DNA from: Raillietiella orientalis
Taxonomy: Eukaryota
Assembly (NCBI GenBank): GCA_036172245.1
Contig: JAYWIR010000112.1
Coordinates: forward strand, 124,001 to 156,909
Direction: 5' to 3'
Length of the DNA: 32,909 nucleotides
In this document: in pieces, positions 1,885-31,452 of the stretch
Numbering within the stretch: position 1 is the first letter of the stretch
How the letters are laid out: every line of letters starts with the position of its first letter
Notes under the pieces: model-generated
The model's input: only the letters and a program-made list of their open reading frames with translations
The model's database searches: none
What the model was told of the DNA's origin: nothing
Translations under genes and position numbers: made by a program

Positions 1885-3883
1885 ACTATCCTGTGTACTG
1901 GTGATGTTGCACTATGCTACTTGGCAGATTGCACAGGAACACACAAGTGCGAGCGAAAACGCAGGCACAAAGTTGGCCGACCGTTGCCGCGGATAGACGT
2001 GGAAACACGTCTGCACTGTACGAGCGCAGGAGATCGAACGCATCTTTGGAGGGCGGCTGTGGTATCGGTGTGGAACATCGAGAAGTTGCAGTGTCGCCTA
2101 CCTGCTTCGGCTCGCCATCGAGGCCGCCGCCCGTGGAGTGCGGTTAAACGATCACGGTCGTGTCGACCAGCTCACTATCAGTTGTTCCGACTCGATCGAC
2201 CTCAAAGTCACGAACGTTTACGCCCCGAGCGGAGCGGGCCTGACGAACAGGAGGGCCAAGAAAGAATTTTTGCTGGCCCTCCATCGCGACTGGTTGACCG
2301 AGGCAGGCGTGCGGAATGCCCATCTGGTTGCAGGCGATTTCAACGTTCGCCTGAAACCAGATGGGCAGAATCCCGAGCGTGACCTGGTCGACGAGGTGTG
2401 CATGGCGGTGCACACCTGTAATTTGTTGGCCAGTGCACAGGGGATGTAAGACAGCATTGACCACGTGTTTCTTGACGAGCACCTGCGCCCTCGCGTGGGC
2501 AGGCGCGTGGCAAGTTACCGTGCGAGCCGTCCGACCATCGCCCGCTAGTCCTCGAGATCCATCCGCGCGACAGGGGCCCACCCTCGTCAGCGTGGCGTTT
2601 GCCAGGGGACTGGCTAAATCTCCCGGAAGCGAAGGAACTTCTCTGCACGTTTATACGGAGCTTTAGGATGCAGACACTAGAGGATTGGGACCGCTTCAAA
2701 CGGTCGGTCCAGGAGTTCTGCGACCAGTTCCCTCTGCACTGCCTACCTGAGGGATTTGGGGACGGGGTACGTAACGAACGAGCCTATCTGCAGGCTCGCC
2801 GTTACGCCAGGACCCCCGACATCCGCAGGCTAACGAAATACAAAGCGGGAGTCGAGAGGCAAGCCTGGCAGTCAGGATCGGCCAGCTTGCTGAACGATCA
2901 CGGCCAGGAGCATTCGGCACCCGCTCAGATCCGCGGTTTCCTGAGGCGTTTTCGGTCCACCTTGTACGCAAGAACGCCTCCTGAGCGGAATTTCTCACGA
3001 ATTCTGCTTCCATAAGGCGCTCCTTGGATGGCGGAAGAGTAGAAAAAGTCCCTCGACGAGTCTTTCACGATGGGCGAGATCATCTCGGCCATCGGAAAGC
3101 TCAAGCGGCGAAAGGCTCCAGGGGACGACGGCCTGTACGCGGAGTTTTAGCAAACTTTCGCGGCTGAGCTAACCCCCCTGGTACATCAACTCACCTTGCT
3201 GATACGCAAGACAGGTGACGTTCCCGCCTCGTTTCGTTCGGCAAAGGTGCGGCCTCTCCCTAAGGGAGGAGATCTGAGGAGCATGAACATCTGGTGTCCC
3301 ATCACAAAAGTGAATGCGGATGGCAAGTTGATAGCTAAGGTTTGGGCTGAGCGCTTGGGACGGGTTGCAAACGCCTTCATCAGCCCGGAACAGACGTATG
3401 TTGTTCCGGGGCGAAGCATTAAGACGAACATGTTCCACGCTTTCACCTGACTAGAGCTCCAACACGAAAGGGGCTTGATGCGCACCGGGAATTCCGGTGA
3501 GTCCGCAGTCATTCGACGGATGGTCGGATGGGGGAGGGAGCACTTGCGGTCGCTGTCGACTTGCGTAAAGCATTCGACAGCGTCGACCAGAATCTCCTGC
3601 TAAAGCTTTGGAACGCTTGGGCTTCCCGGCCTCATTATTGGCCTATCTGCGCTCTAGCTGGGGCGATTCGCAAATCAATGTAACTTTCAGCGGGCATACT
3701 GTTCACGGCGTGCCGGTGCGACGTGGGATCCGGCAGGGAGACAGCCTGAGCCCCTTGCTTTTCAGTACCTACTTTGAGTTGGTACTGAGAGCGTACAGGG
3801 AAACTCTCGCACCTGCCGCATGAATGCGCCGGAACGGCTGCGGTTTCAGCATATCCGGACGACCTTCTGCTACTGCTCCCTAT
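663..3883. repeat. Left arm of a ~3.2 kb inverted repeat (partner ~29575-32788)
   Basis: ORF1 1150..1884(-) and ORF1 31570..32610(+) are near-identical proteins. The junction 1860-2100 matches the reverse complement of 31350-31595, and homology continues through EN and RT to the YADD region. Confidence 0.9.
2002..3883 (+). pseudogene. ORF2 fragment (APE endonuclease from the QE motif to RT YADD+6), multiple stops and frameshifts
   Basis: Motifs NVYAP, AGDFN, IDHVFL, SDH, KAPGDDG, DLRKAFD (~3558-3578), GIRQGDSLSP (~3725-3755) and YPDD (3852-3863, a mutated YADD). Stops include 2447, 3148 and 3448. Confidence 0.92.
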
Positions 3884-3895
3884 GCGCCGTCGCGA

Positions 3896-5394: not shown

Positions 5395-5781
5395 GGGGCC
5401 GCTGCGCGGTGCGTGCGGTTTGACGATCACGGTCGTGTCGTCCAGCTGACTCTTAGGTGGTCCGACTCCATCGATCTGATCGTGACGAACGTGTACGCTC
5501 CAAGCGGCGCGGACCTGAAGAAAAGGAGGGCGAGGAAAACATTTTTCCTCGACCTGCGGCGCGACTGGCTCACCAAAGCAGGCGTGCAAATTGCCCATCT
5601 GGTTAGAGGCGATTTGAAGTTTCGCCTAAAACCAGGTGGGCAGAATCACGAGCGTGACGTGGTCAACGAAGTGTGCAAGGCGGTGCACACCTGTAATTTG
5701 TTTGCCAGTGCACCGGAGATGGAGGACATTATGGACCACGTGTTCCTTGTTCAGCACCTGTGAACTCGCGTTGGCAGGCGC
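5395..5781 (+). pseudogene. APE endonuclease fragment (internal part of ORF2)
   Basis: AAARCVRFDDHGR..NVYAP..GDLK(GDFN)..MDHVFL, colinear with ORF 9361..10416. Confidence 0.88.
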
Positions 5782-6779
5782 TCGGCCCTGGCCTTATACT
5801 CCGCCAGACTCCGGACGTCCGGGCATCGTGAAAAGGTACGCGCCTGCAGATGGGATCTGCTGTTCGCGACACCCTCCCAGAAGCCGAGGATAGGCAGGTG
5901 CAAGGGGAACCGGCAGCAGAACTCGCGGACCGATCTTTTCAGATCGACCCAGTCCTCGAGTTCATAGATGGCGAAGCCCCGGAGGTGTTGACGGAGATGC
6001 TCCGCCGCCTCCGAATTGCTAAGCCTGTCGGCCAGCAACCTCCAGACATTCATCAGAGGCCCTTTGCCAGGCGGGAGGAGCTCGAACTCCAGTCTAGGAT
6101 GATCCAAAATCGCGGACAGCAGGCGCCCTCTCCGACCTACTCGTGAGAGCAGGTGTTCATCGAGGAACGCATGGTCCGGCGATCTCTGCATCCCGGGCTC
6201 ACCAGCAAGCAAGTTTTGCACGCGCACGGACGCGCATACCTCGATCACCAGTTGCTTCTCCCTCAAGCGGCATCTCTCCTCTGTTAGCAGGTGGACGTTG
6301 AAGTCTCCTGCGAGGAGGTGCGCCACGTTAGGGCCGGAGTCAGCGAGCCAGCGGCTGCGCAGGCCACCAAGGAATGCAAGTCGCTGGGAGTAATGCCGGC
6401 CGCCGCACGGCGCGTAGATGTTCGTAACGACCAGGTCGATCCATTCGGACCACTTGAGGACAAGTTGGCCCACACGACCTTCCTCGTCGAAACAAACGTT
6501 CCGCACCGCCTCCGCCACCCTGCCTCGGACGAGGAACGCGACTCCGCACGTGTGCGCAGAGCCTTGCCGCCAGTGTAGCGTCCCGCCCGCGCGCTCTTCC
6601 AGATCCGATGCCTGCCGTTCGGAGATGCTATGCATCTCCTGCAGCAGCACCAGATCGAACGCGCGCAAAGCGTTGGCTACCATCCGCTTTTTGTCAGCAT
6701 CACGTAGCCCGTTGACATTCCAACAGGCCACGCTGACGCGACGAGCGGACGCGAGTCCACGCATGACTGCTGCGGACAT
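5777..6779 (-). pseudogene. ORF2 N-terminus of copy B: uninterrupted APE endonuclease and linker, truncated before RT
   Basis: ORF 5751..6779 carries WNVNGL, LLQE, NIYAP, AGDFN, PDH and LDH. Homology ends at AEYKARAER. It is a divergent subfamily relative to the 9361 copy. Confidence 0.92.
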
Positions 6780-8706
6780 GACGGCGAGCTCCTCGCCCCT
6801 TCCGGCGAGAAGTCAGCTGGTAGGAGAGCGGATTGGGAAGCGGAATCGCACCCGTTCGCCGCCACATCGCCCCCAGCTGAGTCCTGGGAGCCGAGGATCA
6901 TCGAATCGGTCTCCGTGCAGGAGCCGGAACCGCCTCCGGCAACAGGCTCGTGCTTTCGCACTTTAGCACGGCGCGCTACCGGCTTACCCCGGCATGCGCG
7001 CTCCATTTGTTTGCACTCGGACTCCACCTCGGAGTCCGAGTGCCTGGCGCGAGACTGGCGTTTTGCCAGTCTCTTTTTGTTTCGGCAGGTGGAGGCTTGC
7101 CCTGCCCGGGCGGGGGTCGTCGCAGTCGCCAACGCAGCTTCCGGAGCTTTGGCTTCCGCAGCCGCCCTCTCGCGCGAAGCGACGGAGACAGAGCACGCAG
7201 CCGTAGTGCGTAACTGGGTACGCACCTTCCTCGGCGTGCTTCTCCTTTGCCTCCCACCTACCTTAAGGATGGGGAATATTGAAGGGTCAACCTTCTTCTC
7301 CCGCTTTGTGGGCGTTCTGGAGACTCGAGTCCAGCTTGCGTCGGAGACGCCCTCCTGGGAGGCCGACGTCTCCCTCAATTGTTTGGCCGGAGATGCCAGC
7401 TCACGTTTCGCGCTCGCGGCGGGAGACGGCTCCGTCCCCGTTACGCACTGCACCTGCTCCTTAGCCGATGCGGGCGAAACGGCGGTCATTGCCGTCGTCC
7501 CGCGAGGCGCTATTGCAGCCTTCGCTGCTCGTGCCTTCGGCATGGAAGACTTGATCTCCACCGCCGTAGGAGGAGACTGCCGTTCAGAGGCAGCTCTCAG
7601 GGTACGCGCGCACGGTTTCCCGTGTGCTCCGCTGGACGCGCAAGCGGACGCGGACGGATCAGCAGCCTTGATTGAGTGCGTGCCCGCACTCTTAGGCTGC
7701 TTCGAAGGGGGCGATTTGCCCCCAGGGCGACGTGGCATCTTTCCCTTCTGCGCGGTTGTCTGGGATGGTGGCTTTCCTGAAGCAACCGCGCCCTTTTTCG
7801 CGGGACCGCCACTCGAAGATGCCCCGCCCTTCGCGCCCGATTTCTCCCGTGGCACAACGGGGGATCTTTTCGGCGCGAACAAGGTTGATTGTTGGCGGCT
7901 TTTCGCCTCCCTCTTTCTCTTCAGCTCGGCGCACTCTTTGATGGAGTGGCCGGGCTGTTTACAATAGCGGCAGTTGCGTGAAGGACACGTCCACAAACGG
8001 TGACCCTCTGCACCGCAAATGCCGCAAGCCGGTCGCTGACCGGCAAATTTAAGGTGGACGATCGCATCGCCCACCTGCAAGTGCGGAGGCATTTGCCTCC
8101 TATCCGCCATGGTAACACGCGCCATGGAAGTCCGCTGTGGAGAGATGCAATCCTTTTGATCGGATTTTCTGCTCTCCACAGCGCGTGCACCGTGGCGAAT
8201 GCACTTAGTGCAGCGACGAGCACGCGATCGGGCGTGTCCACCTGGACGGCGGACAATCGGACCACGGACGACTGGTCCATGGCCGACGGGACGACCTCCT
8301 TCCCGCGGATATTTAGCGAGGCTCGGAGAAGGCGCTGGACTAGGGATGCCTCTTTGCAGTGCACCTCCCAGTGTCCGAGCGCGTTAATCGGCATGACGGC
8401 CAGGAGGTCGTCCTGTCGGACCCCGAGGCGCAAAAGCTCGTCTCACAAATTTTCTCCGACCCCGTCGGAGTTCGCAGCACTCACCGGATAGCAAAGCGCA
8501 GGCTTGTAGCCATGGGCTGCATATGCCTGCAGCTCTGCTTCGCTGGGCGGTGCTCCGTTGGCTACCGCCGCCTTGACGACTTCGGCGAAGCTTCTCGCCG
8601 GTGGCGAGACACAAGAATCAGAGGCGGACCGGACATCTGGAGTAGAGTCTAAACTGCCAGTAGCAGCCCCCACATCCATCTTTTGCTGCAGGGGCTCCGT
8701 GGACAT
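6677..8706 (-). pseudogene. ORF1 of copy B (two CCHC knuckles), frameshifted, with its end overlapping the ORF2 start
   Basis: ORFs 8443..8739, 7921..8433 and 6677..8179 tile one ORF1: SPPARSFAEV, HCKEASLVQRLLR, CGICGAEGHRLWTC, CRYCKQPGHSIKEC. Confidence 0.9.
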
Positions 8707-8843
8707 CCCAGTGTACGCACTCGGGCACACCACACACAAGAAGACGGAAAGGAATCACGCTCGACGAGCAACACAGAACACGTCAGTGCACCGTTGTCGT
8801 CGAGCGTATTCCATACCGCTGCGAAAAAGAACTCGCCGCTACT

Positions 8844-9346
8844 GACGGCAACCCCTCTGTTGACTCTGTCAACAGCGAGGGGAGCGAGCCGGCGGCGGCG
8901 TTGTCATCGACACCACCATCGATGACGTAGCCTTCGCGCTAGCCGCGGAGGAGCTGGCGGCATCGTTGGTGCCAGAACCCTGCAAGGCTGGCAAGAAGGC
9001 CGTAAGGCGTCCGGCCTCCCCTCAGGAGTCCCCCACCTCCGACCCCGAGGTGGAGACCGGAAGCGCAGCCTCCGTTTCCACGGCGCCGCGCAAGAAGTGT
9101 GGACGTAAGTCCACAAAGCCAAGGAAGCTCGTCTCCCCCGTCAAAGGGGAAGAGATGGCTTCCGCAAGCGAGGGTGCCATGAGCGTAGGAAATTCTCGGG
9201 ACCCATCGCCCGAGAGACTCTTACGCGCGGACACGGAGGGGATGGAGGGGGTGGAGGCCGAACAGGTGCCTGAGGTGCCTGAAAAGGACGAAACCCCCAT
9301 GGACATCCCGCGCGCCTCGCAAGAGGAGGGCTCCCCCACACCTTAA
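8844..9346 (+). pseudogene. ORF1 C-terminal fragment
   Basis: DVAFALAAEELAASL..KAVRRPA matches DVTFTKAAEELTATL..KAVRRPA in the ORF1 at 14805..15431. It stops 14 nt before the ORF2 ATG. Confidence 0.75.
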
Positions 9347-9360
9347 TCTTCCCAGAAGTA

Positions 9361-12300
9361 ATGCCGGGAATCTCCTCCCGCCGTCGTCTGCGCATCGCCG
9401 TTTGCAACGTAAACGGCATGACAGACGCCGGCAGGAGGCGAGACATGGCCGCCCTTCTGGAGTCCTACGACCTTGCGCTGCTGCAAGAGATCCACGTGAT
9501 CTCTGCAGAACAAGCGCAAGAGATCGAACGGATCTCCGGAAGGCGGCTATGGTACAGGTATGGGAGAGCGAAAAGTTGCGGTGTCGCCTACCTGCTTCGG
9601 CCAGCCGTCGAGGCCGCGGCTCGGGGCGTGCAGTTCGACGATCACGGTCGTGTCGGCCAGCTGACTCTCAGGTGGTCCGACTCGATCGATCTGATCGTCA
9701 CGAACGTGTTCGCACCGAGCTGCGCGGACCTGATGACCAGGAGGGCGAGGACAGAGTTTTTCCTTTCCCTGCGGCGAGACTGGCTGGCCGAAGCAGGCGT
9801 GCGGAATGCCCATCTGGTTGCAGGCGATTTCAACGTTCGCCTGAAACCAGATGGGCAGAATCCCGAGCGTGACCTGGTCGACGAGGTGTGCATGGCGGTG
9901 CACACCTGTAATTTGTTGGCCAGTGCACCGGGGATGGAAGACAGCATTGACCACGTGTTTCTTGACGAGCACCTGCGCCCTCGCGTGGGCAGGCGCGGCA
10001 AGTTACCGTGCGAGCCGTCCGACCATCGCCCGCTAGTCCTCGAGATCCATCCGCGAGACAGGGGCCCACCCTCGTCAGCGTGGCGTCTCCCAGGGGACTG
10101 CCTGAAGCTCCTGGACGCGGCGGAACATCTCCGCACGTTCATACCGAGCTTCAGGCTGCGGACACTCCAGGATTGGGACCGCTTCAAGCGGTCGGTCCAG
10201 GAGTTCTGCGACCAGTTTCCTCTGCACCGCCTACCTACGGGTTTTGGGACCGGGGTCCGTAACGAACGAGCCTACCTGCGGGCCCGTCGTTACGCCAGGA
10301 CCCCCGACATCCGCAGGCTGGCGGAATACAAAGCGGGAGCAGAGAGGCAAGCCTGGCAGTCCGGATCAGCCAGCTTACTGGACGATCAGGGCCAGGAGCA
10401 CTCGGCCCCTGCCTAAATCCGCGGCCTGCTGCGGAGTTACTACTCCTTCCTGTATGCCAGGGCACCTCCGGAGAGGAACGTCTCACGACTCCTGCTTCCG
10501 GAAGGCGCTCCAGCGATCGGGGAGGAGCAGAGAAAGACCCTCGTCGAGCCTTTCACGATGAACGAGATCCTCTCGGCCATCGGAAAGCTCAAGAGGCGAA
10601 AGGCTCCAGGGGAGGACGGGCTGCCTGCGGAGTTTTAACAAACTTTCGCGGCTGAACTTTCCCCCCTGGTACAGCAACTCACCTTGCAGATACGCGAGAC
10701 AGGTGACGTTCCCGCCTTGTTTCGTTCGGCAAAGGTGCGGCTTCTCTCTAAGGGAGGAGATCTGAGGAGCATGAACAACTGACGTTCCATCACAATAGTG
10801 AATGCTGATGCCAAGTTGATAGCTAAGGTTTGGGCTGAGCGCTTGGTACGGGTTGCAAACTCCTTCATCAGCCTGGAACAGACGTATGTTGTTTCTGGGC
10901 GAAGCATGGAGGCGAACCTGTTCCACTCTTGCACCTGACTAGAGCTCCAACACGAAAGGGGCTTGATGCGCACCGGTAATTCCGGTGAGTCCGCAGTCAT
11001 GCGACGGATGGTCGGATGGGGAAGGGATTACTTGCGGTCGCTGTCGACTTGCGTAGAGCATTCGAAAGCGTTGACCAGAATCTCCTGCTGGAGCTTTTGG
11101 AACGCTTGGGCTTCCCGGCCTCATTATTGGCTATCTGCGCTCTAGCTGGCGCGATGCGCTAATCAATGTTACTTTCAGCGGACATACTGTTCACGGCGTG
11201 CCGGTTCGACGTGGGATCCAGTAGGGAGACAGGCTGAGCCACTTGCTTTTCAGTACCTACTTTTAGTTGGTACTGAGTGCGTACAGGGGAACTCTGGCGC
11301 ACCTGCCGCACGACTGTGCCGGCACGCCTGCGGTTTCAGCATATGCGGACGACCTTATTCTACTGCTCCCTATTTCATCCCCGGTTTCGGCAGTCGAGAA
11401 GTTGTTTGACCTGCTAAATCGAGGAACCGGGCTTACGGTGAACAGGGCGAAGTCGTCCGTGATGTCAGTTTGTGCAGCGTAGGCAGGGCAGCAGGACTGG
11501 GTCCGTTTGGGGATCCCCACGGTGAGGTACTTCAGGTTCCTTGGTGTGCCGTTGGGGGACTACTCCCCTGCGGAAGCGTGGTCCGGCTGCCTCCAAAAAG
11601 TAGAGACGGAGATCGGCCCGTTCCGAGGCGGGAGGTTTTTCCTGCCTGAACGGGCCGCGGTTTGGAACACGTTGGCGGCTCCTCTCCTCCGCCTCCTGCT
11701 TTTTGTTTGCCCCCCCACAGAGAGAATTAAAAAGCGGACAAAGGACCTCCTCCGTATCGCCCTTTCGGGCAACGGAAGGCCCGAGACCGCTTAAAGGACT
11801 TGTGCGCTCCTCATCGGGATGGTGGTCTGGGCCTCCTGACGCTGGAGCGGCTGGAGCTTCAGCTTCAGTTCCGATTGTCGGCACTCGTTCCAGAGTTGTG
11901 GTGCACCTGTTGGGGCGTCCCTGCACGTCTCCTTCTCCAGCAAGCCACCGGCAAGACGGGACTGACTTCGTTTCTTGCACTCCGTCGTCGCGTCAACCAT
12001 TGCGGACTCCAGCTACGGAGGGTGGCTACGCTGTATCGGAAAAACCCAGGATTGCTCACCTGTCGCCCTTTCTAAGGTAGTGCCTGGTTGCAGGAAACCG
12101 TTCGAACGTGGGGATAGTTCGGCATGCAACTCTGCCAACGGGAACGAAGGTTCCTGTTTGGGGGTTACAGAAGTAGCACGCTCTGCGAGATCCTGGAGGA
12201 TCCAAAGAACAGAGCGTGGGCAGGAAGAAACCCCCTCACTGCTGCGCTGCCCTCCCTGATGGAAGATCTGGACAGCGATGTTGCGGCGAAGTGGGAGGTT

Positions 12301-12939
12301 TCAGTTACAATCTCCGGAAAGAAGAAGAAGATAGGAGAGTGGAAGACGGGCCAGTTAACAGACGCTGCGTCCCCGAGTACGCCTCCCAATGGACTTCTGC
12401 GCTGGGGCGCGGTCCTCGATGTTCCCATTGTACATCTGAAGTGGCTCCCGGTGCTCATGAACACTTCCGCCCTCCCCTTAAAATGGCAGGATTCGGCTCT
12501 CCTGTTGCAGCACTGGGGACTCCCCTGCAACGCCCGCCCACACCACTGGACCTGGGGAGCGGTGGACCCCAATTGCGTCAGGTGTGGGGAACGGGATTTC
12601 CTCCGCCACCTGCTAGTGGATTGTGTTGCCCTTCGGCCCCTTTGGTTTCGCTTTGCCGCGGCCATCGGAATCCCCTGCGGCAACCCGAGGGACGCACTGA
12701 AAGCCCTCTTCGTTGCCGACGCCCTTCGGCCAGCGGCCTCGTTAGCAGCTTTGTGCTGCCTACGCGGGATCGTCACCGCTTGGAGCAAGGCTACGGGAGG
12801 ACAACGCGACCAGAGTGCCATCCAGCCAGCCTCCCAGTTCCTGAGGAGGGCGTCCCGATGGCCCCATTTGGATCCAGAAATACAGAAGGAGCTTGCCGGG
12901 ATCCTGCAAAGGATGCAACGGCCCCACCAGCAACTGTGA
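9361..12939 (+). pseudogene. Full-length ORF2 (APE endonuclease, RT, C-terminal zinc finger), inactivated
   Basis: EN in ORF 9361..10416, then KAPGEDG, YADD at 11342-11353, FRFLGVPL, DGGLG and CVRCGERDFLRHLLVDC. Many stops (e.g. 10414, 10636, 10936) and frameshifts. Confidence 0.95.
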
Positions 12940-13156
12940 TCCCTTTATTTACCCTCCCAACTTTTCTTTTCTTTTTTGTTTTGTTTTTTGTTTTTCCCCC
13001 TTCCCCCTGCTGCCGTGGTGGACCATACCGGTCTGCGATCCGGTGACCCGGCAGGCTCTGTGTTTCTTCGTGCGTGGCTGGAGCAATGGTCCAGCCACCG
13101 CACGTCTTTGTAAATGTTTATTTTACAATAAACGCCCCTGCGAAATATGGGTGAAA
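12940..13156 (+). other. 3' UTR with U-rich tract, hairpins, AATAAA and terminal stem-loop
   Basis: T-rich tract 12962-12995, hairpin CGTGCGTGGCTGGA..TCCAGCCACCGCACG (~13069-13104), AATAAA at 13127-13132, then CGCCC..GAAA..GGGTG. Confidence 0.8.
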
Positions 13157-14010
13157 ATCGAACGCTTTATGCAGATCGACTGTGATCGCTAGGGCCCCCT
13201 TCCCCACCTGGGATTCCTGTCCGTGCCCGGCTGACGCCTCCAAAGCTGGGCTGCCAATCATTCCCTCTTCCTTTTCTTCACTTCTCTGCACATGAAACCA
13301 TGTGCTCGCGAAGAAGTGGTTGGACTCCATACTTTGCCTGGGAACAGCGTAATTCTGCTCCGGGCTAATTATGGAATTGGCCACCTGCCCCAGACGCGAA
13401 GCCCACATTGCGGCGATCAGCTTGGCGTATGTATTCACAATTGTGATCGGACGCCAGTTGCTGAGTTTCCTGAGGTCTCCTCCTTTCGGAAGGAGCCTCA
13501 CTCTGGCTGACCGAAACGAGGCGGGTACATCGCCTCCATCTCGGATCAGCCTTGTCAACTCAGGCACCAGGGGTGCCAACTCTGCCGCGAGCATCGAAAA
13601 AACTGCGCGCGCAGGCCGTCCTTCCCTGGTGCTTTCCGCTTCTTGAGCCTTCTGATACCGGCGAGAACTTCGCCGGTGGTATAAGGCTCGTCGAGGCTTT
13701 TCTTCTCCTCCTACTCTATTGCCGGGGCACCGTCCGGAAGAAAGCGCCGAGAGGCATCTTGGTCCGGGGGCGCCCTGGCGTAAAGGGAGGGATAATAACG
13801 CCGCACGAGGTGCCGTATTCTAGCCGGAGCCGAGTGCTCCCGGCCCTGGTCGTCCAGCAAGCTGGCCGACCCGGATTGCCGGGCTTGACGTTCGGCCCCG
13901 GCTCGGTACTCTGCCAGGCGACGGACATTGGGGTTTCTCGCGTAACGACGGGCATACAGGTACGTGAGATGGTTATGGACCCCTTCACCAAATTCCCGGA
14001 TTGCAGACAT
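13118..14010 (-). pseudogene. Antisense ORF2 fragment (EN-RT linker to RT motif DLHKAFD) lying between copies C and D
   Basis: ATG at 14010 opens MSAIREFGEGVHNHLTYLYARRYAR. After a stop at 13711 and a frameshift it reads NWRPITIVN..SPEQ..DLHKAFD. The last 12 codons are the antisense of copy C's 3' end. Confidence 0.88.
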
Positions 14011-15387: not shown

Positions 15388-16339
15388 TCTTAGTTTCCTT
15401 GTGTCTTCCTTATGGAATCGCCTGCGCTTAACTGACCAACTGCCCCAGTGATCCGGTCAACCGGGTGAAGTTTGTTGATGACTCAACAGATTTAGTCTGT
15501 GAGGGAAAAGTAGTAAGTACAGATTATGCATCTCCCACCCTTTCAAGGAGTGGCCTACAGCACGGCATGGCTAATGAGATTGTTCATAGCTCATCAGATG
15601 GACCATCATCTGAAGCGAATACTCAATTCAAGATCGCGGTGAAAACATCGTATTAACAAATTTTCTTCCTAGGGTTTAATCGTATAAGCAGCACATTCCC
15701 ACCAACGAATTTATGGTTGACGGAATTACAAAGCTCGGATTTTGGATTTCCACTTTTTCATTCGAGGTCGATGCGTCTCGCGATCGTTTCTCGCAGTACG
15801 CCTATTTTGAAATGCAGATTGAGAAGATGCTTGGAAGTGTACCATATGAAGGGAAGTATAGAGGTAAGAGATAAAGTAAAGGCGTTCAATTTGCCCAATT
15901 TTGGGCGTCTCACACGCAGACTTGCTGTCACGTTGGTACACCATCCGATGGCAGCCAGTTTTCCAGCTTTCAGTCGCCGACTAGCCGATAACCAGGCTAG
16001 AAACGCTCGTAGTTCGCAGTAAGCTTTATGCTTTTCTTCGAAATGAATTGCTGTCCATCCTTTGTGGGATCACTTTCAAATATTCTGTTGTCCACCAGTA
16101 TAGCCGATGAGAGAAGCGAATTCTTTTTGATGTACATGAATTTTCCTATGTGCTTTTCAACTGTTCAAGGAAACTCAAAGAAACAGCTGAATCGAACACT
16201 TCATGATCTCCTGACCACTTCATAATGCTCTGAGAAATTCAAGCAAGAAGAACAATAAAAGGTAGTGTAAAGTAAGAAAACAACTTGCTGATAATTTTCG
16301 ATTGCCCTGTACGGTGATTACCTGCAAATGATTTCCTTC

Positions 16340-16890
16340 ATGGTTACAGATCTGTTCCTCCTACTCCTTGGAGAGATTAGGCCAGCTTACGGTTATCCGC
16401 GAGAAAACGATCATGAAAGTTCAGGGTTACGTTTTCGTCAGGAACGCGTTGTTAACTTTTTGTTGAAGAGTGGCCGTTACATAGCTGTGATCTCCACACT
16501 AAGCGCCCTGCCGATGCAACTGAAAACACCTTTCGTCAATTTTCAAGCAGTTTCCTTCTGCCTAACACAACTCTGGTATTTTTCCAATTTGCTAACTGAG
16601 CTAGCGCTCTTGGGATGAGGCAGGATCTGTGAGGCTAGCTCTAGAACAAGTGGTGCAATGGAGATCCCAAGCCGATTACTTAGGCTGCAATTCCGATCGC
16701 TTCTAGGCGCAGTAGATCACGCCTTTTTCTTCAGATCCACACATATTCCCAGCAGTTGCAGCCGTAAATATTTCCGCACCCTGGAACTGTTTCTTGGATA
16801 CAGGCAGTGCAGCTGGTTAGCATTAGGGAGATCCAAGTGTTCTCTTGCATCAGAGGAACCATTTGCTGCTGCATATGGCCATATTCTCTC
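16340..16890 (+). pseudogene. Highly degenerate relic of the ORF2 post-RT region
   Basis: Colinear weak matches to copy C: RFRQERVV ~ RFFLPERAA, LALLG*GR ~ IALSGNGR, RLLRLQFR ~ RLELQLQFR, CSWL ~ SAWL. Confidence 0.4.
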
Positions 16891-16899
16891 AGGCTAATC

Positions 16900-17450
16900 T
16901 CGTTCCGCACGGCAATCGACGAGAGCACTTCGGATGGTGGCGGTCTTCTAGAGAGACTCTTCCTGTGCTCACAAAGACGTGGTCCATTGCTTCATCACAA
17001 GTGCACGTCCTCTGAACTGGAGCTCCAGCCCTAATCTCTGCAGAGTAAGAAGGCTTGGTCCACCATTCCAGATGGGAAAACACAATTCTTTGAATTGGAC
17101 ACGGGATCTCTCTGTACAGAAAAGAAAGAGAAAGAAAAGAGAAACAACAGGAGAAACTATCAAGAGAAACAACGTGGAGAAATCCTTATACCGCTTTTTC
17201 ATGGTGACAAGGCTCTTCGCAAAGAGGACAGAAATTCTCAGTGCTAACGAGTGACATGTGAACGGGTGGCTCCTCAAGCATTGCGGGTCGTTCTTTTTGG
17301 CTGACAGTGGAAACTTGGCAGATGCGTAGGAGTTAGGTACTTGGCCTATCTCCCGATCATTATCGCTAATCCGTGTGAGCAAATTCTGCAGCAGAGTTTC
17401 CAAAATTCTTCGGAAAACTCGCACGCGGAGAAGAAATGTTGGCTCTCTCC
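16900..17450 (-). pseudogene. Degenerate relic of the ORF2 post-RT region
   Basis: RSRVQFKELCFPIWNGGPSLLTLQRLGLELQFRGRALVMKQW aligns with RARVRLKDLCAPRRDGGLGLLTLERLGLQLQFRILALVLELW (ORF 28648..29283). Also MKKRYKDF ~ IKKRTKDL. Confidence 0.75.
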
Positions 17451-18269
17451 TCTGTAGTGGCTGCTGCATTCGTTTCCTCGGGAAAAGTCCCGAAAGACGG
17501 CTAAAGACTCCTCCTCCGACAGCGTGCTCATGGCTGCTTGCAGCGGCTCTGTAGCTCACTTTTGTTCAAAAGGCGCACTTGCTGACAACGGTGTTTCACC
17601 ACGTGGCCTGCGTGCTTGGTCGCGGAAAACAATTAGTCAGACTTGTGGAAGGCCTGCTGCACCGTGGCAAGCTCAGCAAATTACTTTTTCCCTAGAAACT
17701 TTGGGGTGCCTTCCTCCGTTCGTTCCAAGTAATTTCATTGCGCTGAAGTACTTCAATTCGATGTCGAATATGGTTACTTGATGCTGTAGAACCAGTGAGG
17801 AGCTTTTTCAGAGGACTTGTGATCCTCCGAAAGCAGAAGCCCCCAGAAAGTGGTGTGAATGGAGAAAAAGTATCGCTAGTGTTCTTATTTGCCTAAAGCC
17901 CCTTTCACCCTTGGCATCGCCTTGTTCACTAGAACTGCTGCTGGCATTCCATACCGTGAACTCTGCTACATTGTCCCTTTCGCAGTACCACTTTCTTCCT
18001 ATAAAATGCCCTTTCTGGTAAGCATCTAGCTTCCTGCTTTCGGTGCGCCACATTCTTCAGGCAGTATACCTTCCGAAAATTGTTTGGTATCTAGTTGAGT
18101 TGGAAGCATGTACTGCATCTTCCGATTTCTAAGGCGATTACAAAGTGACTACGTCCCTTGTGCCCAAAATCTTTTTGTGGGAATTTGTGGCTGTCGTGCA
18201 CCTATTTCTATTTCATTAGTTTGCCACGTTTCCTGCAAATGAAACATTTTCGCATCTTTACAGCAGAGA

Positions 18270-18560
18270 GAGCGCCTGATGTTCGTTTCCTGTGACCTCA
18301 CAGAGTGCACAACTTTGGGCCTGACCAAGTAAAACCTGACGATTTTTTGTTAAGGCATAGTTCCTCTGAGATATGTGACCTATTCGCTGCACGCGTACGC
18401 ATTTTTTCCAGCCCACTGTACGTGCTGAAAGCCTGGTGTAACACTTTCTTGGTGGCAACCATCATGAACAGCACCGAACTTTGAAAGCTTGGTCGCCACC
18501 GCAACTTTCTGCTTATCGGCGGCAATCCTCCTGGATGGTGCAACACGGAATCGCCCTAGG
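18270..18560 (-). pseudogene. Degenerate relic of ORF1 (RRM-like region and first knuckle)
   Basis: VATKLSKFGAVH..PGFQHV, YSGLEKMRTRAANRSHISEELCLN and CALCEVTG align with VSVLAKFASVH..KDFPSVHIGQASARITVANRRVVPEQLQVN..CEHCVKDG. Confidence 0.6.
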
Positions 18561-21500
18561 GGATAGAAGACGTCACATCTCACCTTTCTATATACATTGA
18601 TTTCTTTAGTATGCAGTGTACCAACGCTATAGTTATACAGCAGTGCTCGATTAAGGTACCGCTACCAGCACTTACCAGCACTCTTCAAGCTCTCTGGAAA
18701 ACGTTGAAATTTCTGAAGGATCCAAATGGAAAAGAAGTTTGATACCTGATGTACTTGTATTTAAGAGGAACTGTTGCATCCATGGACCTCAAGACCAAAA
18801 GAAGTCCTGGTCAGCAGGCATATGTTTTTATCCCTGCTGATTGAGGCAGCCATGACTTTCAAAGACATCTCCAATGAAGCTTTTGTCACAAGGAAATAAT
18901 TGGACCCAACTTTTGAAGAGCCAATTCATGTTAAGGGGTCATCTAAAATGTAAAACCTCTCTTTGCCATCCAAGCCTCACTTGAAATGAAAAGCGTTGCT
19001 CACCTGTAAGATCAGCCGAACAACATGCGCACAGAGAGGGCGACAGACACCATCGTCTCTTTAGCGCAACCAGGAGAGAAGGCTTTTCTTGTAGAGTACG
19101 ACCCAATATACTTTACCACCAGAGCGGATGTTATTGCCTTAGAATGTGGACCTGCAGCCTTTTTCTGATCGCTCGCTCGGCGACTCTGAGCTGCTTCCAC
19201 ACCTTGCAACATTCGAAAGAGCTACTTCCCCTCCGGCTGAAGTTCTTCCTCTCAGAGTAGACAGGGCTGTGAGAAGCTTTCTGCTAAGTGATCAAGAAGA
19301 AAGCAAAACTCAAAAGGCTCGTTGTCATCGAAAAGAATCGTCAAGCCAGCGAAGTTAATCCCGAAGGAGAAGCCATCCACCACCCCAATGTGCGTAGTGC
19401 TTGGTCTGCTCCTGTTGAAAAGAGAGGACGTCGCTCAGGGAGCTCGAGAACCTCAAAGCACTCGCTTGAACGTAAACCTCACAGTGGATTGACTTGCTAA
19501 ATACTTATTATGCGGAAAAAAATACTCCCTTCTATTTGAAAAAGATTGCATGAGAACAAAATGGAAGCGGTTGCCAATACGCAGTGATTCCACTTTTTTT
19601 CCCGCTACCTCATTGCAGCGACCCAAATGTGCTCGAGCCATCCCGTAACAGTATGATCTACAAAATCCATGTGATTTACTGCGGAATAGGAATGACTTCA
19701 AAACATATGTTCTTGGTACGTAAGGCGGAATTCCTCTTTATCTTTGATTACCTTGTATTTGGATTTTGTTTGAATGAGTTGCTGCTTTCAGGGAACATGT
19801 AAGGGCAGGCCGGCTTCCAGGCTCTTTCAGGCAGTTTTATCTGACCAACTACGAAACGGTGTGCAGCTGCCTACCCGAAACCTTTGCGATATTTCTCTCC
19901 GGCGAGGAACGAATACGACCTAGAAAATGGGATTGCCATCTGTGAGGATATTGCCGGTTTTCTTTTTCAGCACTTGCGTCTAGGTTTGAGGATTTCGTGA
20001 TAACTGAATGTGGGCTGACCTAATTGTGTAGCCGGAAACACTTGTTCAACGGTGGAATCTGCATTTATGCTCAATAAATAACTCTCACCTTGCAGTTTAC
20101 CATTACAACTTACGTGGCGTCTTGTTGCCGCATCGAAGTCTCCAGTGGGCATCAGTAGGCAATCCACAGAAATCCGGCGGAATGATTCTCCCTAGGATGT
20201 ACATGGTGAGAGTATTTTCAATCCTTCTCTCCTCAGTTAGGCGGACGGTAATAACATGCGTGCCCACTCTTTAGTGGAACCAGCGCATAGTGGCAAAGCT
20301 TCGACCGGTCGGCTTGTTTCCTTCAAAGTTTTTCTCCTCCTTCACAACACATAGTGGGCAACTGAGAGCTCCTCGGCCTGCATCTTTGGATGCTTGAGCA
20401 GTCAGTCTTCTACTTCCGCGGTTGCCAACCGCGAATCGCGACTACTGGCAGTTCGTTGCTTCTATGCGGATTGGCACTCGTAATCGTTTCTCGAACCGCT
20501 GTGGGATGCAGCACGCGCGTTGCCACTACTCACAGATAGCACCGTTAGATGCGGATTGTGCTCAACTTTGATCCTACCTTGCATCATTACCATTAGAATT
20601 GTTATACTATTTTTTCGGATGACATGACGACGTTTCTTGTTAAACTCTCAAGCTTATGCGGTAATGCGCTTGCGGGTGCAAAGATGAAGACTCCTCAGGT
20701 AAAATTTCATCAGAAGCAGACTGAAACTTATGCTGTGCGATGCTCAGGATGCCTTACCGGTGAAGTGCGGAACTTCAGAAGGCTTCCGATGTTGAGGTGC
20801 ATCTCAGGATAACATCGCAGTATTCTAGGGAGGGCAAAAACAAGGAACTGTACATATCAGTGGGAATCGTTGAGTTGTTCAAACTTAACCACAAGGAATG
20901 CGCGGCGCTGTAATATCGAGAAACACTGTTTGTTTCTGTCGAAGACTTTCACGCGCGTGGGGATTCGAGGTGGTTTCATGCCACTTGGGTTCTTTTGCTA
21001 CATCGAATCCTGGATCCTTCCATGGATCAAGCACAACGTTGAAAAATTTCGCAAAAAAATGAATCATATATTTCAGCTGCTGCTGCAGGCGCTAGTGCTT
21101 CTCTTGGGAATCGGCATTCCTGCCGCAACCGGGTTGAGTTGCAAACAGCTCTGGGAGCACTTAAAATTTCGGAAGTTTACTGGAAATTGTTCGTTCTATT
21201 TGGAAATTCCGTTTGAAGACTCACCGCCTTTAACTGCTTGTAGGGCAGGATGGGGACCTGATACACGGCCAACGGAAAGTAGAGAACGATGCTCTGTCAG
21301 TGTCACGGTAAGATGACAATACACACTGAGAAATCATATCTTGGTTTCACCAGACTGACAATGGTCTCCCGGAGGATGTAAGCGTCTTCATGAACGGTGC
21401 CTGTAATGGTGCTTGCACATTTTCTCCTGAAAATGGGTAAGAGACCTTCCCATTTTGGCATCCAAGCATGCACGTTGCTTTCCCTTTTTTGCATTGATAT

Positions 21501-25427: not shown

Positions 25428-25432
25428 ATGTT

Positions 25433-26630: not shown

Positions 26631-27227
26631 TACCCCCAGCCTTCTCCATATTACTCCTCAGAATCCTGCATTCAAAAGGACCTAGAGCAGGATGAACTTT
26701 ATATCCCCCCTTCACTAGAGTCCCATTTAGACCATCCATAAGAATTGATCTAACCATCTTCTCCCTCCATCTAGCCGGAAGTTCGTTGTTATGGATTGTG
26801 GGTCCTGGTTGTGAGAGTTCTAGTCGGATGATGAGTCTGAGGGAGGTGCCGAAGATACCAGCTCAGGCTCTGAAAATGAAGTATAGAGTTCCGATGTCTT
26901 TGTGATTAGTGGATATGAGTCATCGTTGAATTATTTTCATGAGATTTTATATTTTTAACTTTGAAGGTTAATAGTTTATTTAACTTATAATCTTAGGGTG
27001 GTAAAATGGCTGAGAAAAGCGGTAAATTGTAAATTTATTAATGATGGAATCTTTTATCATTAATGTAGTATGAATATTCTTGAGTTTATAGAATTGCAAG
27101 TTCTATGTTATATAAGAATTAATACACGTCTGGCAAGGAGTCGGGACGGAACGCACCAAGGGGTGCTCCATAACTTCGCTGCGATGGCGAAGGCTCGCCA
27201 CTGCAGCTAAATCTCTACTCTCTACGC

Positions 27228-27827
27228 ATCGGCGAGGAGGAACGCGCTCGTCTCGACGAGCCATTCACGTTGGAGGAAGTTTCTTCCGCCATCGCAGGAC
27301 TCAAGAGACGGAAGACGCCAGGTGAGGACGGACTGCCCGCGGAGTTCTATCAGAGCTTCGCGTCGGAACTCGCCCCACTGGTTCTTAGAATCTCGACGCT
27401 GATGAGGGTGACCGGCGATGTCCCTTCTTCCTTCCGCTCAGCAAGGGTGCGTCTCCTTCCGAAAGAAGGGGATCTGCGCCAACTCAACAACTGGCGTCCG
27501 ATCACATTAGTGAATACGGACGTCAAGTTGTTTTCGAAGCTGTGGGTCACGCGCTTACGGAAAGTCGCGGAGTCCGTGGTAAGCCCGGAGCAGTCTTACG
27601 CTGTACCGGGTAAATCCATGGATGCGAACCTTCTTTTCGCGCGCAACTGGTGGCAGCTTCAAGAGCGCGTTGCGCCGGATAGCCGAACAGCGGCAAGACC
27701 TTCTGCCGACTGCGTGCACCAGTGCGGACGGACAAGAGAAAGGCCGGGAGCCTTGGCACTAGCAGTAGATTTGCACAAAGCATTTGATTTTTACCCGGAT
27801 TTCTCCGGGTCGTTTATTGAAAAATAA
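27228..27827 (+). pseudogene. Antisense ORF2 fragment (RT N-terminal half ending at DLHKAFD), open frame
   Basis: ORF 27270..27827 reads KTPGEDGLPAEFY, NWRPITLVNTDVKL, SPEQ and DLHKAFD. The tail FYPDFSGSFIEK* is the antisense of copy E's 3' end. Confidence 0.9.
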
Positions 27828-28002
27828 ACTTTATAGAGTAATTATTAATGGGTGTGGCAATGCTCCAGCCAGAAGCTACGAATCACGGAGCCTGCCAATT
27901 CACCGGTTTCTAGACCGCTACGGTCCACCAAGGCAGCAAAGGAAAGGAAAAAAACAAAAACTAAACAAAAAGAAACAAAGGGTGGGAGGGAAGGGGAAGG
28001 GA
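27789..28002 (-). other. 3' UTR of copy E with AATAAA and a GAAA-tetraloop terminal hairpin
   Basis: Minus strand reads AATAAA (27818-27813), then ACCCGGA-GAAA-TCCGGGT (27810-27793), then AAAA. Confidence 0.82.
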
Positions 28003-31000
28003 TCACTGATGCTGCTGGGGCCGCATCATCCCTCTCAGGATGCTGACAAGCTCTTGTTTGTTATGAACATCCACGTGGGGCCATCGCGACGCCCTACTCA
28101 GGAATTGGGAGGCGCACTGGATGGCGTCCATATCCCTAGGTCCTTCCGTCGCCGTGCTCCAGGGGGCGACGATCCCACGAAGGCAGCACAAGGCTGCTAT
28201 CGAGAAAGCTGGCCGCAGGGCGACGGCATCGAAGAAGGATTCTAGTGCGTCCCTGGGGCTGCCGCAAGGGATACCGATAGCCTCGGCAAAGCGGAACCAA
28301 AGGGGCCGAAGGGCAACACAATCCACTAGGAGGTGGGGGAGCGACTCCCGTTCCCCGCACCTTACACAATTAAGATCCACCGCTGCCCAGGTCCACTGGT
28401 GACGACGGGCGTTGCAGGGGAGTCCCCAGTGCTGCAACAGGAATGCCGACTCTTGCCATTTTAGGGGGAGGATGGAAGTGTTCATAAGAATCGGGGGCCA
28501 CTTCAGATGTTCAATAGGAACATCCAGTAGCGCTCCCCAGCGCAGAAGTCCATTAGGGAGCGTACTCGGGCTCGCAGCATCAGTTAGCTGGCCCGTCTTC
28601 CACTCTCTCTGCTTCTTCTCCTTCCAGGGGATTTTTATTGGAACCTCTTACTTCGCCGCAACATCGCTGTCCAGATCTTCCATCAGGGAGGGCAGCGCAG
28701 CAGTGAGGGGGTTTCTTCCTGCCCACGCTCTCTTCTTTGGATCCTCCAGGATCTCACGGAGCGTGCAACTTCTGTAACACCCAAACAGGAACCTTTGTTC
28801 CTGATGGGAGGGTTGCAGGCCGAACTGTCCCCACGTGCGAACGGTTTCCTGCAACCAGGCACTACCGTTCGCGGGGAGACAGGTGATCCATCCTTGATTT
28901 TTTCTTGCCAGCGCAGCCACCCTCCGTAGTTGAAGCCCACATCGGTTGATGCGGCTTCGATGGAGTGCAAGAAACGACCTAAGTCCCGTCTTGTAAGTGG
29001 CTTGCTGAAGGAAGAGTCGTGCAGGGACGCACCAACAGGTGCACCACAACTCCAGCACAAGTGCTAAAATCCGGAACTGGAGCTGCAGCCCCAGCCGCTC
29101 CAATGTCAGGAGGCCGAGACCACCGTCCCGACGCGGAGCGCACAAGTCCTTTAAGCGGACTCGGGCCCTCCCGTTGCCCCAAAGGCGGATACGAAGGAGG
29201 TCATTCGTCCGCTTTTTGATCCTCTGTGGGGGGGGCAAACAACAAGCAGGGAACGGAGGAAAGGAGCCGCGAACATGTTCCAAACCGCGACCCGTTCAGG
29301 CAGGAAAAACCTGCCGCCTCGGAACGGGCCGATCTCCGTCTCTACTTTTTGGAGGCAGCCGGACCACGCTTCCGCAGGGGAGTAGTCCCCCAACGGCACA
29401 CTGAGGTACTTGAAGTACCTCATTTTGGGGATCCCCAAACGGACCCAGTCCTGCTGCCCTGCCCACGCCGCACCAACTGGCATCACGGACGACTTCGCCC
29501 TGTTCACCGTAAGCCCGGTTCCTCGATTCAGCAGGTCGAAGAACTTCTCGACCGCCAAAGCCGGAGTGGACATAGAAAGCGGTAGCAGGAGTTCGTCCGC
29601 ATATGCTGAAACCGCAGGCGTTCCAAAGCATTCATCCGGCAGGTGCGCCAGAGTTTCCCTGTACGCTCTCAGTACCAACTCAAAGTAGGTACTGAAGAGC
29701 AAGGAGCTCAGGCTGTCTCCTTGCCGGATCCCACGTCGCACAGGCACGCCGTGAACAGTATGCCCGCTGAAAGTTACATTGCTTTGCGAATCGCGCCAGC
29801 TAGAGCGCAGATAGGCCAATAATGATGCCGGGAAGCCCAAGCGTTCCAAAAGCTCCAGCAGGAGATTCTGGTCGACGCTGTCGAATGCTTTACGCAAGTC
29901 GACAGCGACCGCAAGTGCTCCCTCCCCCATCCGACCATCCGTCGCATGACTGACGGACTCACCGGAATTCCCGGTGCGCATCAAGCCCCTTTCGTGTTGG
30001 AGCTCTAGACAGGTGGAAGCGTGGAACAGGTTTGCCTCCATGCTTCGCCCCGGAACAGCATACGTCTGTTCCGGGCTGATGAAGGCGTTTGCAACCCGTT
30101 TCAAGCGCTCAGCCCAAACCTTAGCTATCAACTTGCCATCCGCATTCACTATTGTAATGGGACGCCAGTTGTTCATGATCCTCAGATCTCCTCCCCTAGA
30201 GAGAAGCCGCACCTTTGCCGAACGAAACCAGGCGGGAACGTCACCTGTCTCGCGTATCAGCAAGGTGAGTTGATGTACCAGGGGGGTTAGCTCAGCCGCG
30301 AAAGTTTGATAAAACTCCGTGGACAGGCCGTTCTCCCCTGGAGCCTTTCGCCTCTTGAGCTTTCTGATGGCCGAGATGATCTCGCCCATCGTGAAAGACT
30401 CGTCGAGGGACTTTTTCTCCTTTTCCTCGATCGCGGGAGCGCCTTCCGGAAGCAGGATTCGTGAGAAATCCTGCTCGAGAGGCGTTCTTCCGTACAGGGA
30501 GTAAAAACGCCGCCGCAGACCGCGGATCTGAGCGTTTACCTAATTTTCCCGGATCTGATCGCCCAGCAAGCTGCCCGATCCTGAATGCCAGATTTGCCTC
30601 TCGGCTCCCGCTTTGTATTCCGCCAGCCTGCGGATGTCGGGGGTCCTGGCGTAACGGCGAGCCTGCAGATAGGCTCGTTCGTTACGGACCCCTGTCCCAA
30701 GACCCGTAGGTAGGCGGTGCCGAGGGAACTGGTTGCAGAAATCCTGGACCGACCGTTTCAAGCGGTCCCAATCCTGAAGTGTCTGCATCCTAAAGCTCCG
30801 TATAAACGTGCAGAGAAGTTCCGTCTCTTCCTGGAGATTTAGCCAGTCCCCTGGCAAACGCCACGCTGACAAGGGTTGGCCCCTGTCGCGCGGATGGATT
30901 TCAATCACGATTGGTCGATGGTCGGACAACTCGCACGGCAACTTGCAGCACCTGCCCACACGAGTGCACAGGTGCTAGTCAAGGAACACGTGATCGATGT

Positions 31001-31452
31001 TGTCTTCCATCCCTGGTACACTGGCCAACAAATTGCAAGTGTGCACCGCCGCGCACACCTCGTTGAGCAGGTCACGCTCGTGATTCGGCACATCCGGTTT
31101 CAGGCGAACGTTAAAATCGCCTGCAACCAGATGGGCATTCCGCACGCCTGCCTCGGTCAACCAGTCGCGATGAAGGGCCAGGAAAAATTCTCTCCTGGCC
31201 CTCCTGTTCGTCAGGTGCGCTCCGCTCGGGGCGTAAACAATCTCGACGATCAGGTCGATCGAGTCGGAACAACTGAGAGTCAGCTGGTCGATACGACCGT
31301 GATCGTCGAACCGCACTCCACAAACGGCGGCCTCGATGGCGGGCCGAAACCGGTAGGCGACACTACAACTTCTCGATGTTCCACACCGATACCACAGCCG
31401 CCCTCCGTAGATGCGTTCGATCTCCTGCGCTCGTACAGTGCAGACGTGTTTC
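28003..31452 (-). pseudogene. ORF2 of copy E, lacking roughly the first 40-45 aa, inactivated
   Basis: EN in ORFs 30975..31316 and 30540..30959. A 412-aa open RT core (29151..30389) has DLRKAFD, GIRQGDSLS and YADE. The C-terminus is in 28648..29283 and 28003..28485 (CVRCGERESLPHLLVDC). Confidence 0.95.

Follow-up and report, generated by a model that had tools for sequence, protein, structure and literature searches.

Evidence for repeated antisense insertion of a LINE family into the reverse transcriptase motif of related LINEs in Raillietiella orientalis

The window analyzed here (32,909 nucleotides) comprises the last 32.9 kb of contig C112 in the 210 Mb assembly of Raillietiella orientalis. 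Nests of related non-LTR retrotransposons (ORF1, followed by an ORF2 with an APE endonuclease, a reverse transcriptase (RT), and a zinc-binding region) occupy both of its ends, and a segment of 42 to 50% GC with almost no LINE homology (∼15500–24500) lies between them. Copies A, C, and E belong to one family, termed the inserting family below, and are accompanied by pieces of sister families (Table 1). Copy C, with its endonuclease recognized by Pfam and its RT and zinc-finger regions by tblastn, matches a full-length copy at 89% from −4373 to the 3′ end; the adjacent host fragment 1 matches family proteins at 57 to 79% by tblastn and the inserting family at 70% in DNA. The same GCTG^TCGAA variant of the RT site as in E is present in copy A at 3567–3581. 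An inverted repeat of 3.2 kb and 92% identity (663–3884 versus 29571–32788) runs across the A/E interruption joint and reflects either a duplication or parallel insertions. Copy C is apparently mosaic: its identity to E is 91% around the RT and 74% over the last 250 nt, and its RT site is of the E type but its 3′ end is of a different type. A GTTA-type 3′ end (3885–3925, minus strand) abuts the RT of copy A in antisense, just past the YxDD region, and a GCGACGGCG flank similar to that of this end was seen at locus L079 in another host region.

Table 1. Elements, host fragments, and junction features of the window (TSD, target site duplication).
Feature	Position	Strand	Description
Copy A, inserting family	2010..3884	+	5′ interruption point common to E; cut at 3884 by the 3′ end of another family
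Element B, sister family (ORF1 and endonuclease)	5778..8784	−	5′ end abuts C in antisense and displaces the 5′ part of C
Copy C, inserting family	8785..13157	+	3′-terminal 4.37 kb, from the end of ORF1 through the APE endonuclease, the RT, and the zf-RVT region to the 3′ UTR
3′ terminus of C	13127..13157	+	AATAAA, short CC(C)GG-loop-CCGGG-type stem (degenerate in C), TGAAAA; without poly(A)
Expected downstream TSD copy of C	13158..13171	+	Host codons H-K-A-F-(D) read in antisense; no upstream counterpart seen at C
Host fragment 1	13158..13992	−	Sister-family ORF2, from the endonuclease end to DLHKAF-D, broken at the junction
Host fragment 2	27220..27787	+	RT from a different sister lineage, broken at DLHKAF-D; host clade differs from fragment 1
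Copy E, inserting family	27788..31444	−	3′ 3.65 kb; cut within the endonuclease region by an opposite-facing element
3′ terminus of E	27788..27818	−	AATAAA, CCCGG/CCGGG stem, TAAAAA
RT site of E, antisense-strand reading	29877..29891	+	GCTG^TCGAA variant (F-D-S), uninterrupted; variant rarely used

An earlier reading made from the letters of the window (the sequence-only reading) had placed the ends of two elements at the identical nucleotide of a DLHKAFD motif on the opposite strand, DLxKAFD being a catalytic RT motif. Both 3′ ends do adjoin the reverse strand of DLHKAFD, but the exact base is shifted by one: the breaks had been put right after the Asp codon, and the target site duplications (TSDs) at other loci start with TCG rather than ATC, which locates the junction inside that codon. 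Because TSDs elsewhere begin at TCG, the last A (13157 in C and 27788 in E) is assigned to the element, and the corrected junctions are 13157/13158 (C) and 27788/27787 (E). Empty GCAG-type hosts have GAC at the Asp codon, which the last A of the element converts to GAT. The 12-residue tails and stops of both fragments translate as originally given, the host fragments are indeed more diverged from each other than the C and E ORF2s (67 to 70% versus 83 to 91% identity), and the A and E ORF2s do read DLRKAFD. A function for the 12-residue tail was considered and rejected; the tail arises where the conserved 3′ terminus is read in antisense, and the fragments that carry it are broken. Folding of the C terminus gave nothing beyond shuffled sequences (z = −0.87). 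C and E are both cut on their 5′ sides by other elements (at 8785 and 31444) and the window ends where the contig ends; TSDs of C and E are not visible, with no matching TSD within 10 kb to the left, and the 5′ halves were not found. When the junction pattern was searched genome-wide, 177 exact matches were obtained, compared with 0 for the reversed control; the recurrence of the DLHKAFD junction is far beyond chance.

The 3′ end of the inserting family is GGGTRAAAA, without poly(A). We listed 215 such ends genome-wide by patterns blind to the downstream sequence, and a second list of 202 came from a search that rejected ends with G at one position downstream. TCRAANGCYTT, the antisense of the K-A-F-D codons, directly follows 119 of the 215 ends (55%). 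For closer inspection 80 loci were taken in list order from the first 100 of each list, 40 at 8 to 10 kb (202-end list) and 40 at 6.5 kb (215-end list); two duplicate C13 rows were skipped and a few duplicates remain. The motif follows 35 of these 80 ends exactly, 47 with at most one mismatch, and 51 with at most two (one of the 51, L136, is not RT-like). Exactly four A residues terminate 79 of 82 ends, 40 of the 82 having been chosen by a pattern that required four A, and no long A tail was seen by eye among 100 listed 3′ ends. Some loci enter the genome counts more than once through assembly or segmental duplication (C11/C13 pairs, L166/L167); at C11:4.62–4.64 Mb and C13:2.46–2.48 Mb, sets of junctions match each other in inverted orientation, which suggests one such duplicate.

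The 5′ boundaries carry the other half of the footprint. A TSD was found at 46 of the 80 loci, 22 of the 51 on-target and 24 of the 29 others, and many of the 29 on-target loci without one are cut by further nested insertions. The TSDs are 8 to 24 bp long (mode 14, median 13–14) and nearly all start at the T of TCG. Upstream of the on-target TSDs, 14 nt correspond to antisense C-V-D-Q codons, the majority base being present in 15 to 22 of the 22 loci at each position. Host RT resumes at approximately residue 217 of the query beside the 5′ end of the element (L069, L070, L075, L077, L079, and L080), and in several loci the rest of the host RT, the zinc-finger region, and the 3′ end continue past the element. 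Isolated host fragments have been hit as well (L073, L075, and L077). Element lengths range from 22 nt to 5.6 kb with differing truncation points. All 12 distinct full-length 5′ ends are located at the motif in a fixed register, five of them directly behind the 3′ end of another copy; the sample is biased, as the loci had been selected for a nearby 3′ end or target site. At L080, L142, L170, and L181, insertions of 22 to 24 nt consist of the bare terminal stem with full TSDs, and L181 apparently shows serial mini-insertions at one site. Taken at sequence level, these observations make it very probable that the inserting family has entered the RT motif of its relatives repeatedly, site-preferentially, and in antisense. 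The suggestion of sequence-specific targeting of a conserved RT motif is thus borne out by the number of instances, by the trees described below, and by the TSDs; the many further termini followed by the motif (177 exact; 119 of 215 ends) and the post-KAFD continuation with a TSD at the 5′ end (22 on-target loci) had been named as the things to look for, and both are present.

The same reading had offered an old, maintained junction as the alternative. In 29 element/host pairs with at least 400 nt of element plus enough host RT, the distances among elements show hardly any relation to those among hosts (Mantel r = 0.11, p = 0.07), and ∼8 host lineages are spread across the element clades. The element and host trees are thus incongruent, which points to repeated targeting. 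The C of the window, for example, differs by 5% from the element at L062 and by 24% from its host, and E differs by 5.5% from the host at L166 and by 27% from its element. That a single ancient junction was multiplied in one piece, whether through segmental duplication or through 3′ transduction, appears highly improbable. It would agree with the slightly positive Mantel coefficients (0.11 as above; 0.12, p = 0.16, among the 30 best matches of C), with the 92% identity of A and E over 3.2 kb, and with a few true duplicate pairs (L166/L167, L005/L006, and L022/L023), and may hold for single pairs. The host lineages, however, are up to 58% apart and are paired across element clades, and the TSDs and the missing host half occur at 5′ ends whose truncation points differ from 22 nt to 5.6 kb; the TSD-flanked insertions in unrelated hosts refute a maintained junction as the general cause. 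Nor do the instances reduce to two copies in a uniformly diverged segmental duplication: none of the 29 closest look-alikes of the C junction shares the outer flank of C at uniform divergence, similarity beyond the host fragment being 50 to 58% in 27 of them and 62% and 69% in two. Twin priming, in which the antisense RT piece would be an inverted part of the incoming RNA, internally primed at KAFD in tandem arrays, is practically untenable. Head-to-head joints between opposite-facing pieces are common, but those examined are 5′ ends of other elements, and the antisense pieces are mostly 70 to 80% identical to the inserting family rather than parts of the same copy. The post-KAFD host half adjoining the 5′ end of the element with a TSD is not predicted by twin priming, and the split-host geometry at L069, L075, L077, and L079 refutes it.

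We propose that the repeated insertions arise by target-primed reverse transcription by a LINE family with an APE endonuclease, for which the preferred host site would be 5′-AARGCNTTCGA^CTGC-3′ (K-A-F-D-C) on the coding strand of the RT gene of relatives. The junction sequences show that the first nick falls inside the Asp codon, that the element is inserted antisense to the host, and that the second nick lies ∼14 nt away. The host ORF2 is split in two, and regeneration of the site on the 5′ side allows later copies to stack in tandem. The endonuclease is predicted to read a short core, G-N-M-S^TCGA-R (insert strand), deduced from 23 TSD-confirmed off-target sites; this core occurs by itself at the off-target ends (35 to 45% of all ends). 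The 23 sites have G at −4 (21), G or C at −1 (23), and TCGA at +1 to +4 (20–23 each); +5 is a purine in 18, and farther out they have little in common. Among the 23, a tblastn match to family proteins was obtained for one only, and a second, L074, lies in antisense in the zinc-finger region of a sister.

The short core is insufficient to explain the preference for KAFD. The KAF context surrounds 499 of 17,356 GCASTCGA sites versus 119 of 215 ends (∼19-fold), and at most 499 of 2,932 GCAGTCGAA sites (17% availability); among TSD-confirmed insertions at exact GCAG^TCGAA, 12 of 15 are in the strict KAF context (p = 1.6e-7). Under a matrix derived from the 23 off-target sites, a crude model with that sample size, KAFD sites would receive 0.5% of the expected insertions, and the other matrix-good sites in 2 kb of ORF2 around 23 empty sites carry 1.5 times the KAFD weight. 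A perfect core also exists in the sense strand at S-A-V-E/A-L-E (ORF2 residue ∼702), where it is uninterrupted in 12 of ∼70 segments, and it followed none of the 80 element ends (by eye; the tblastn check covered only 30 of 82 flanks). Because the core predicts 0.5% of insertions at KAFD and the residue-702 site was hit in 0 of 80, an additional layer of specificity would be needed, one that raises the KAFD site at least 20-fold above the core prediction. A very unlikely alternative dispenses with special targeting: an endonuclease with a short motif would insert widely, and selection or LINE-rich chromatin would leave survivors mainly in LINEs. KAFD-C comes close to the best possible match to the off-target core (score 12.1), and all 23 off-target TSD-confirmed copies are shorter than 1.9 kb compared with up to 5.6 kb on target, which hints at purging of long copies; overall lengths on and off target do not differ (p = 0.67). 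Neutrality or chromatin should hold for any good LINE site, yet the S-A-V-E/A-L-E site was hit in 0 of 80, other ORF2 sites outweigh KAFD under the matrix, and the isolated host fragments noted above (L073, L075, and L077) were hit too. Moreover, 6 of 29 RT sites were interrupted (by eye, 30 GCAS-KAF sites having been sampled) versus at most 1 of the 23 off-target insertions at ∼2,400 non-KAF GCAG^TCGAA sites.

The extra layer could be base pairing of the nicked host strand with target sequence at the ends of the element RNA, a reading whose probability we place slightly short of even. The full-length copies seen all lie at KAFD, so RNA with a leader or read-through portion would match further KAFD sites across at least 11 nt. 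The upstream TSD copies at L081 and L087 each have two positions unlike the usual codons of the host family, and that at L079 departs from the downstream copy after 11 nt. The loop subfamily of the element is associated with the synonymous base of the target (3 of 23 versus 35 of 65, p = 6e-4; tallied by hand on the first 100 of the listed ends, 12 of a third type being left out). These three 5′ junctions, the fixed 3′ end, the location of the full-length copies, and the subfamily association fit RNA pairing, and annealing between RNA and target in SART1Bm and R1Bm, as proposed in excerpts of PMC7265360, provides a precedent. On the other hand, at six sites a non-consensus base is retained in both TSD copies, so the downstream copy begins with bases of host rather than RNA origin. 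In the off-target sites, no residual similarity to the motif was seen past +5, where graded pairing might be expected to leave some. A fixed 3′ end could arise just as well if synthesis began at a constant distance from the terminal stem, and the subfamily association could mirror changes over time in host abundance. Strand exposure, or some other cause, is unlikely to form the extra layer.

Recognition by protein-DNA contacts alone, with ORF2p reading a longer or bipartite site, is a tenable although somewhat doubtful explanation; it would leave the targeting claim unchanged and replace the RNA layer. In its favor, the Tx1L endonuclease nicks its own target almost exclusively in vitro, according to the excerpted text of PMC1950540. 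A bipartite site could consist of the inverted pair GCRGTCGA-N14-TCGACTGC (A-V-D...F-D-C), bound by two protomers or by a second DNA-binding surface. Two of the 80 insertions lie in the A-V-D arm, in sense, in a host family with a weaker GCAA FDC arm (L066 and L088), and CG at +20/+21, the second-arm position, was found in 8 of 23 off-target sites against a background of 9.4% (p = 8e-4). This CG signal was not replicated in a later set, however (2 of 11, p = 0.27; 2 of 14 with three more sites), the median TSD of 13–14 differs from the 22 expected for a second-arm nick, and the second arm is absent in some hosts that were hit (L065, L077, and L080).

Returning to targeting in general, the sites differ in how often they are used. 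Copies of the inserting family themselves have GCTG or GCAA before TCGA, in both arms, and most TSD-confirmed hosts have GCAG: the 22 on-target TSD sites include 16 with GCAG, 2 with GCAA, and 0 with GCTG. Site totals are 403 (GCAG), 440 (GCAA), and 191 (GCTG), from a filter that drops some occupied sites. Among the first 100 listed of each, inspected by eye, 14 GCAG, 6 GCAA, and at most 3 GCTG sites were interrupted; the GCAG occupancy thus does not differ significantly from that of GCAA (14/100 versus 6/100, p = 0.10) and differs from that of GCTG (3/100, p = 0.009). In the unfiltered sample, approximately one in five GCAG-type sites is interrupted (6 of 29 RT sites, by eye). Strict self-immunity was considered and is ruled out by self-insertions at L081 (at GCTG) and L087 (at GCAA). 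The evidence for partial self-avoidance is weak, a lead, because self-insertions exist, the GCAA contrast is not significant, and family age is a confounder; the GCAA and GCTG lists consist largely of near-identical families that are probably young, and several sister families share the variants. A broader scenario that we regard as rather doubtful is RNA-assisted, self-reinforcing homing among LINEs, in which donors sited at KAFD would aim their RNA ends at codons that rivals cannot easily change, the family and several young sisters would have shifted to less-hit synonymous or Cys-to-Ser variants, and the sister families would each have their own fixed site, as in a retrotransposon arms race within one genome.

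The inserting family is an APE-type non-LTR retrotransposon of the L1 group with a footprint of target-primed reverse transcription (5′ truncation, intact 3′ end, and TSD). Pfam identifies Exo_endo_phos, RVT_1, and a weak zf-RVT domain, the endonuclease matches L1 endonuclease structures at E ∼1e-4 to 1e-5, an ORF1 lies upstream of the endonuclease in L070 and L079, and Atlas neighbors have the same domains. Mammalian L1 elements have a variable poly(A) tail; the inserting family has a fixed four-A end instead. Its alignment to L1 endonuclease variants was too weak to read the recognition loop. L066, with an uninterrupted ORF2, served as the search reference and has substitutions in catalytic motifs, so it gives no evidence for current activity. 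Beyond its own small clade, no protein found exceeds ∼38% identity to the RT. The representative proteins include one at 75% and one fragment at 65%; 18 metagenome loci at 22 to 37% identity include none of the inserting family, and no look-alike stretch was found in the other genomes compared. In the RT tree, the family forms its own clade (100/100) on a long branch in an open polytomy among L1/Tx1-like proteins, outside a group of turtle and pseudoscorpion proteins that are presumably Tx1-like, as judged by their DQEKAFD motif. The label Tx1 that had been suggested for these elements describes a resemblance to target-specific Tx1 LINEs, in their target preference for repeats; membership in the clade is at most putative.

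Several known systems share parts of this behavior. Tx1-clade elements prefer other transposons (excerpts of PMC4640811 and PMC1950540): Xenopus Tx1L inserts into Tx1D, crocodilian Tx1-Mar into Mariner-N4_AMi, Tx1-9_AMi into Harbinger elements, and Tx1-8_Crp and Tx1-4_AMi into LTR retrotransposons (excerpts of PMC4494074). Common to them and the inserting family are the APE endonuclease, RT, and zf-RVT region, a repeat as landing pad, and TSDs; tandem re-insertion around a TSD is also described for SINEU-3 in the same source, and the 55% (119/215) of ends at the motif lies above its 20% flank criterion for target specificity. Here, in contrast, the target is a protein-constrained coding sequence of LINEs of the same lineage, in ∼eight host lineages and almost only in antisense. 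The off-target core suggests an endonuclease that would read only 8 to 9 bp. Zepp (Coccomyxa) and ZeppL (Chlamydomonas) are L1-type LINEs that insert into existing copies and form nested clusters rich in 3′ ends; as far as the excerpts of PMC3446292 and PMC8226300 go, Zepp is arranged in tandem arrays with one cluster per chromosome and ZeppL is absent elsewhere. The inserting family forms tandem stacks at the regenerated site and shows two self-insertions, but it lies antisense to its hosts, which are mostly sister families. In this assembly, which does not reach chromosome level, large contigs carry several scattered sites apiece, and off-target copies occur in DNA outside LINEs. Two Chlorella vulgaris RT proteins, of unverified identity, are far from the inserting family in the tree. 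R1Bm and SART1Bm of the R1 clade may serve as a model for how the 3′ junction is kept precise and how the extra specificity arises; they differ in clade and in targets (28S rDNA and telomere repeats), and SART1Bm needs a poly(A) tail (PMC7265360, in excerpt), pairing here being inferred. In the open full-text literature, we found no report of a LINE aimed at the RT codons of related LINEs, and a prior description elsewhere is possible.

The significance of the preference lies in the nature of the landing pad. Target-specific LINEs are usually seen as sheltering in harmless multicopy DNA; the pad proposed here is an enzyme motif conserved among relatives of the element itself, and every insertion would break a potential competitor. 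The inserting family would thus act as a parasite that uses and breaks its relatives, and conflict between transposable elements becomes countable through site variants, occupancy, and family age within one genome. The short nicking core set against the strong site preference offers a case for separating the share of the endonuclease from that of RNA-DNA pairing in LINE targeting, and it adds an APE endonuclease with a GC-rich, non-T-tract core.

Other types of 3′ ends also recur in genes of relatives. They were found in antisense at ORF2 residues ∼79 (three cases), ∼88 (two), and ∼512 (one), and in sense near residue 178 (six, some possibly duplicates); 27 of 49 such ends have no protein match downstream. 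Corresponding 5′ joints were also seen, among them the one that interrupts E. The ends of one family lie in antisense at the RT D-A-K-L codons, ∼250 nt upstream of KAFD, in the window (25410–25470, minus strand) and at L062, L063, L163, and L165. In addition, 5′ joints recur at approximately −2360 of the inserting family. A GAGAAA-ended sister family recurs in antisense at endonuclease residue ∼71–79, at the interruptions of E (31444) and A (2010) and at L098, L150, L166, and L172. Ends of the GATAAA, GAAAAA, or AATAAA type are followed by sense codons just past the endonuclease G-D-F-N in six cases, some possibly duplicates (L010, L011, L021, L027, L062, and L099), and a GTAAA/GGAAA-ended family meets the same CCTCCAAGGC-type sequence four times, apparently in ORF1 of the inserting family (L098, L141, L158, and L166). 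At the 5′ ends of several families (8785 and 31444 in the window; L062, L078, L079, L081, and L087), a GACGTG/CACGTG box is followed by a T-rich run and is possibly an internal promoter.
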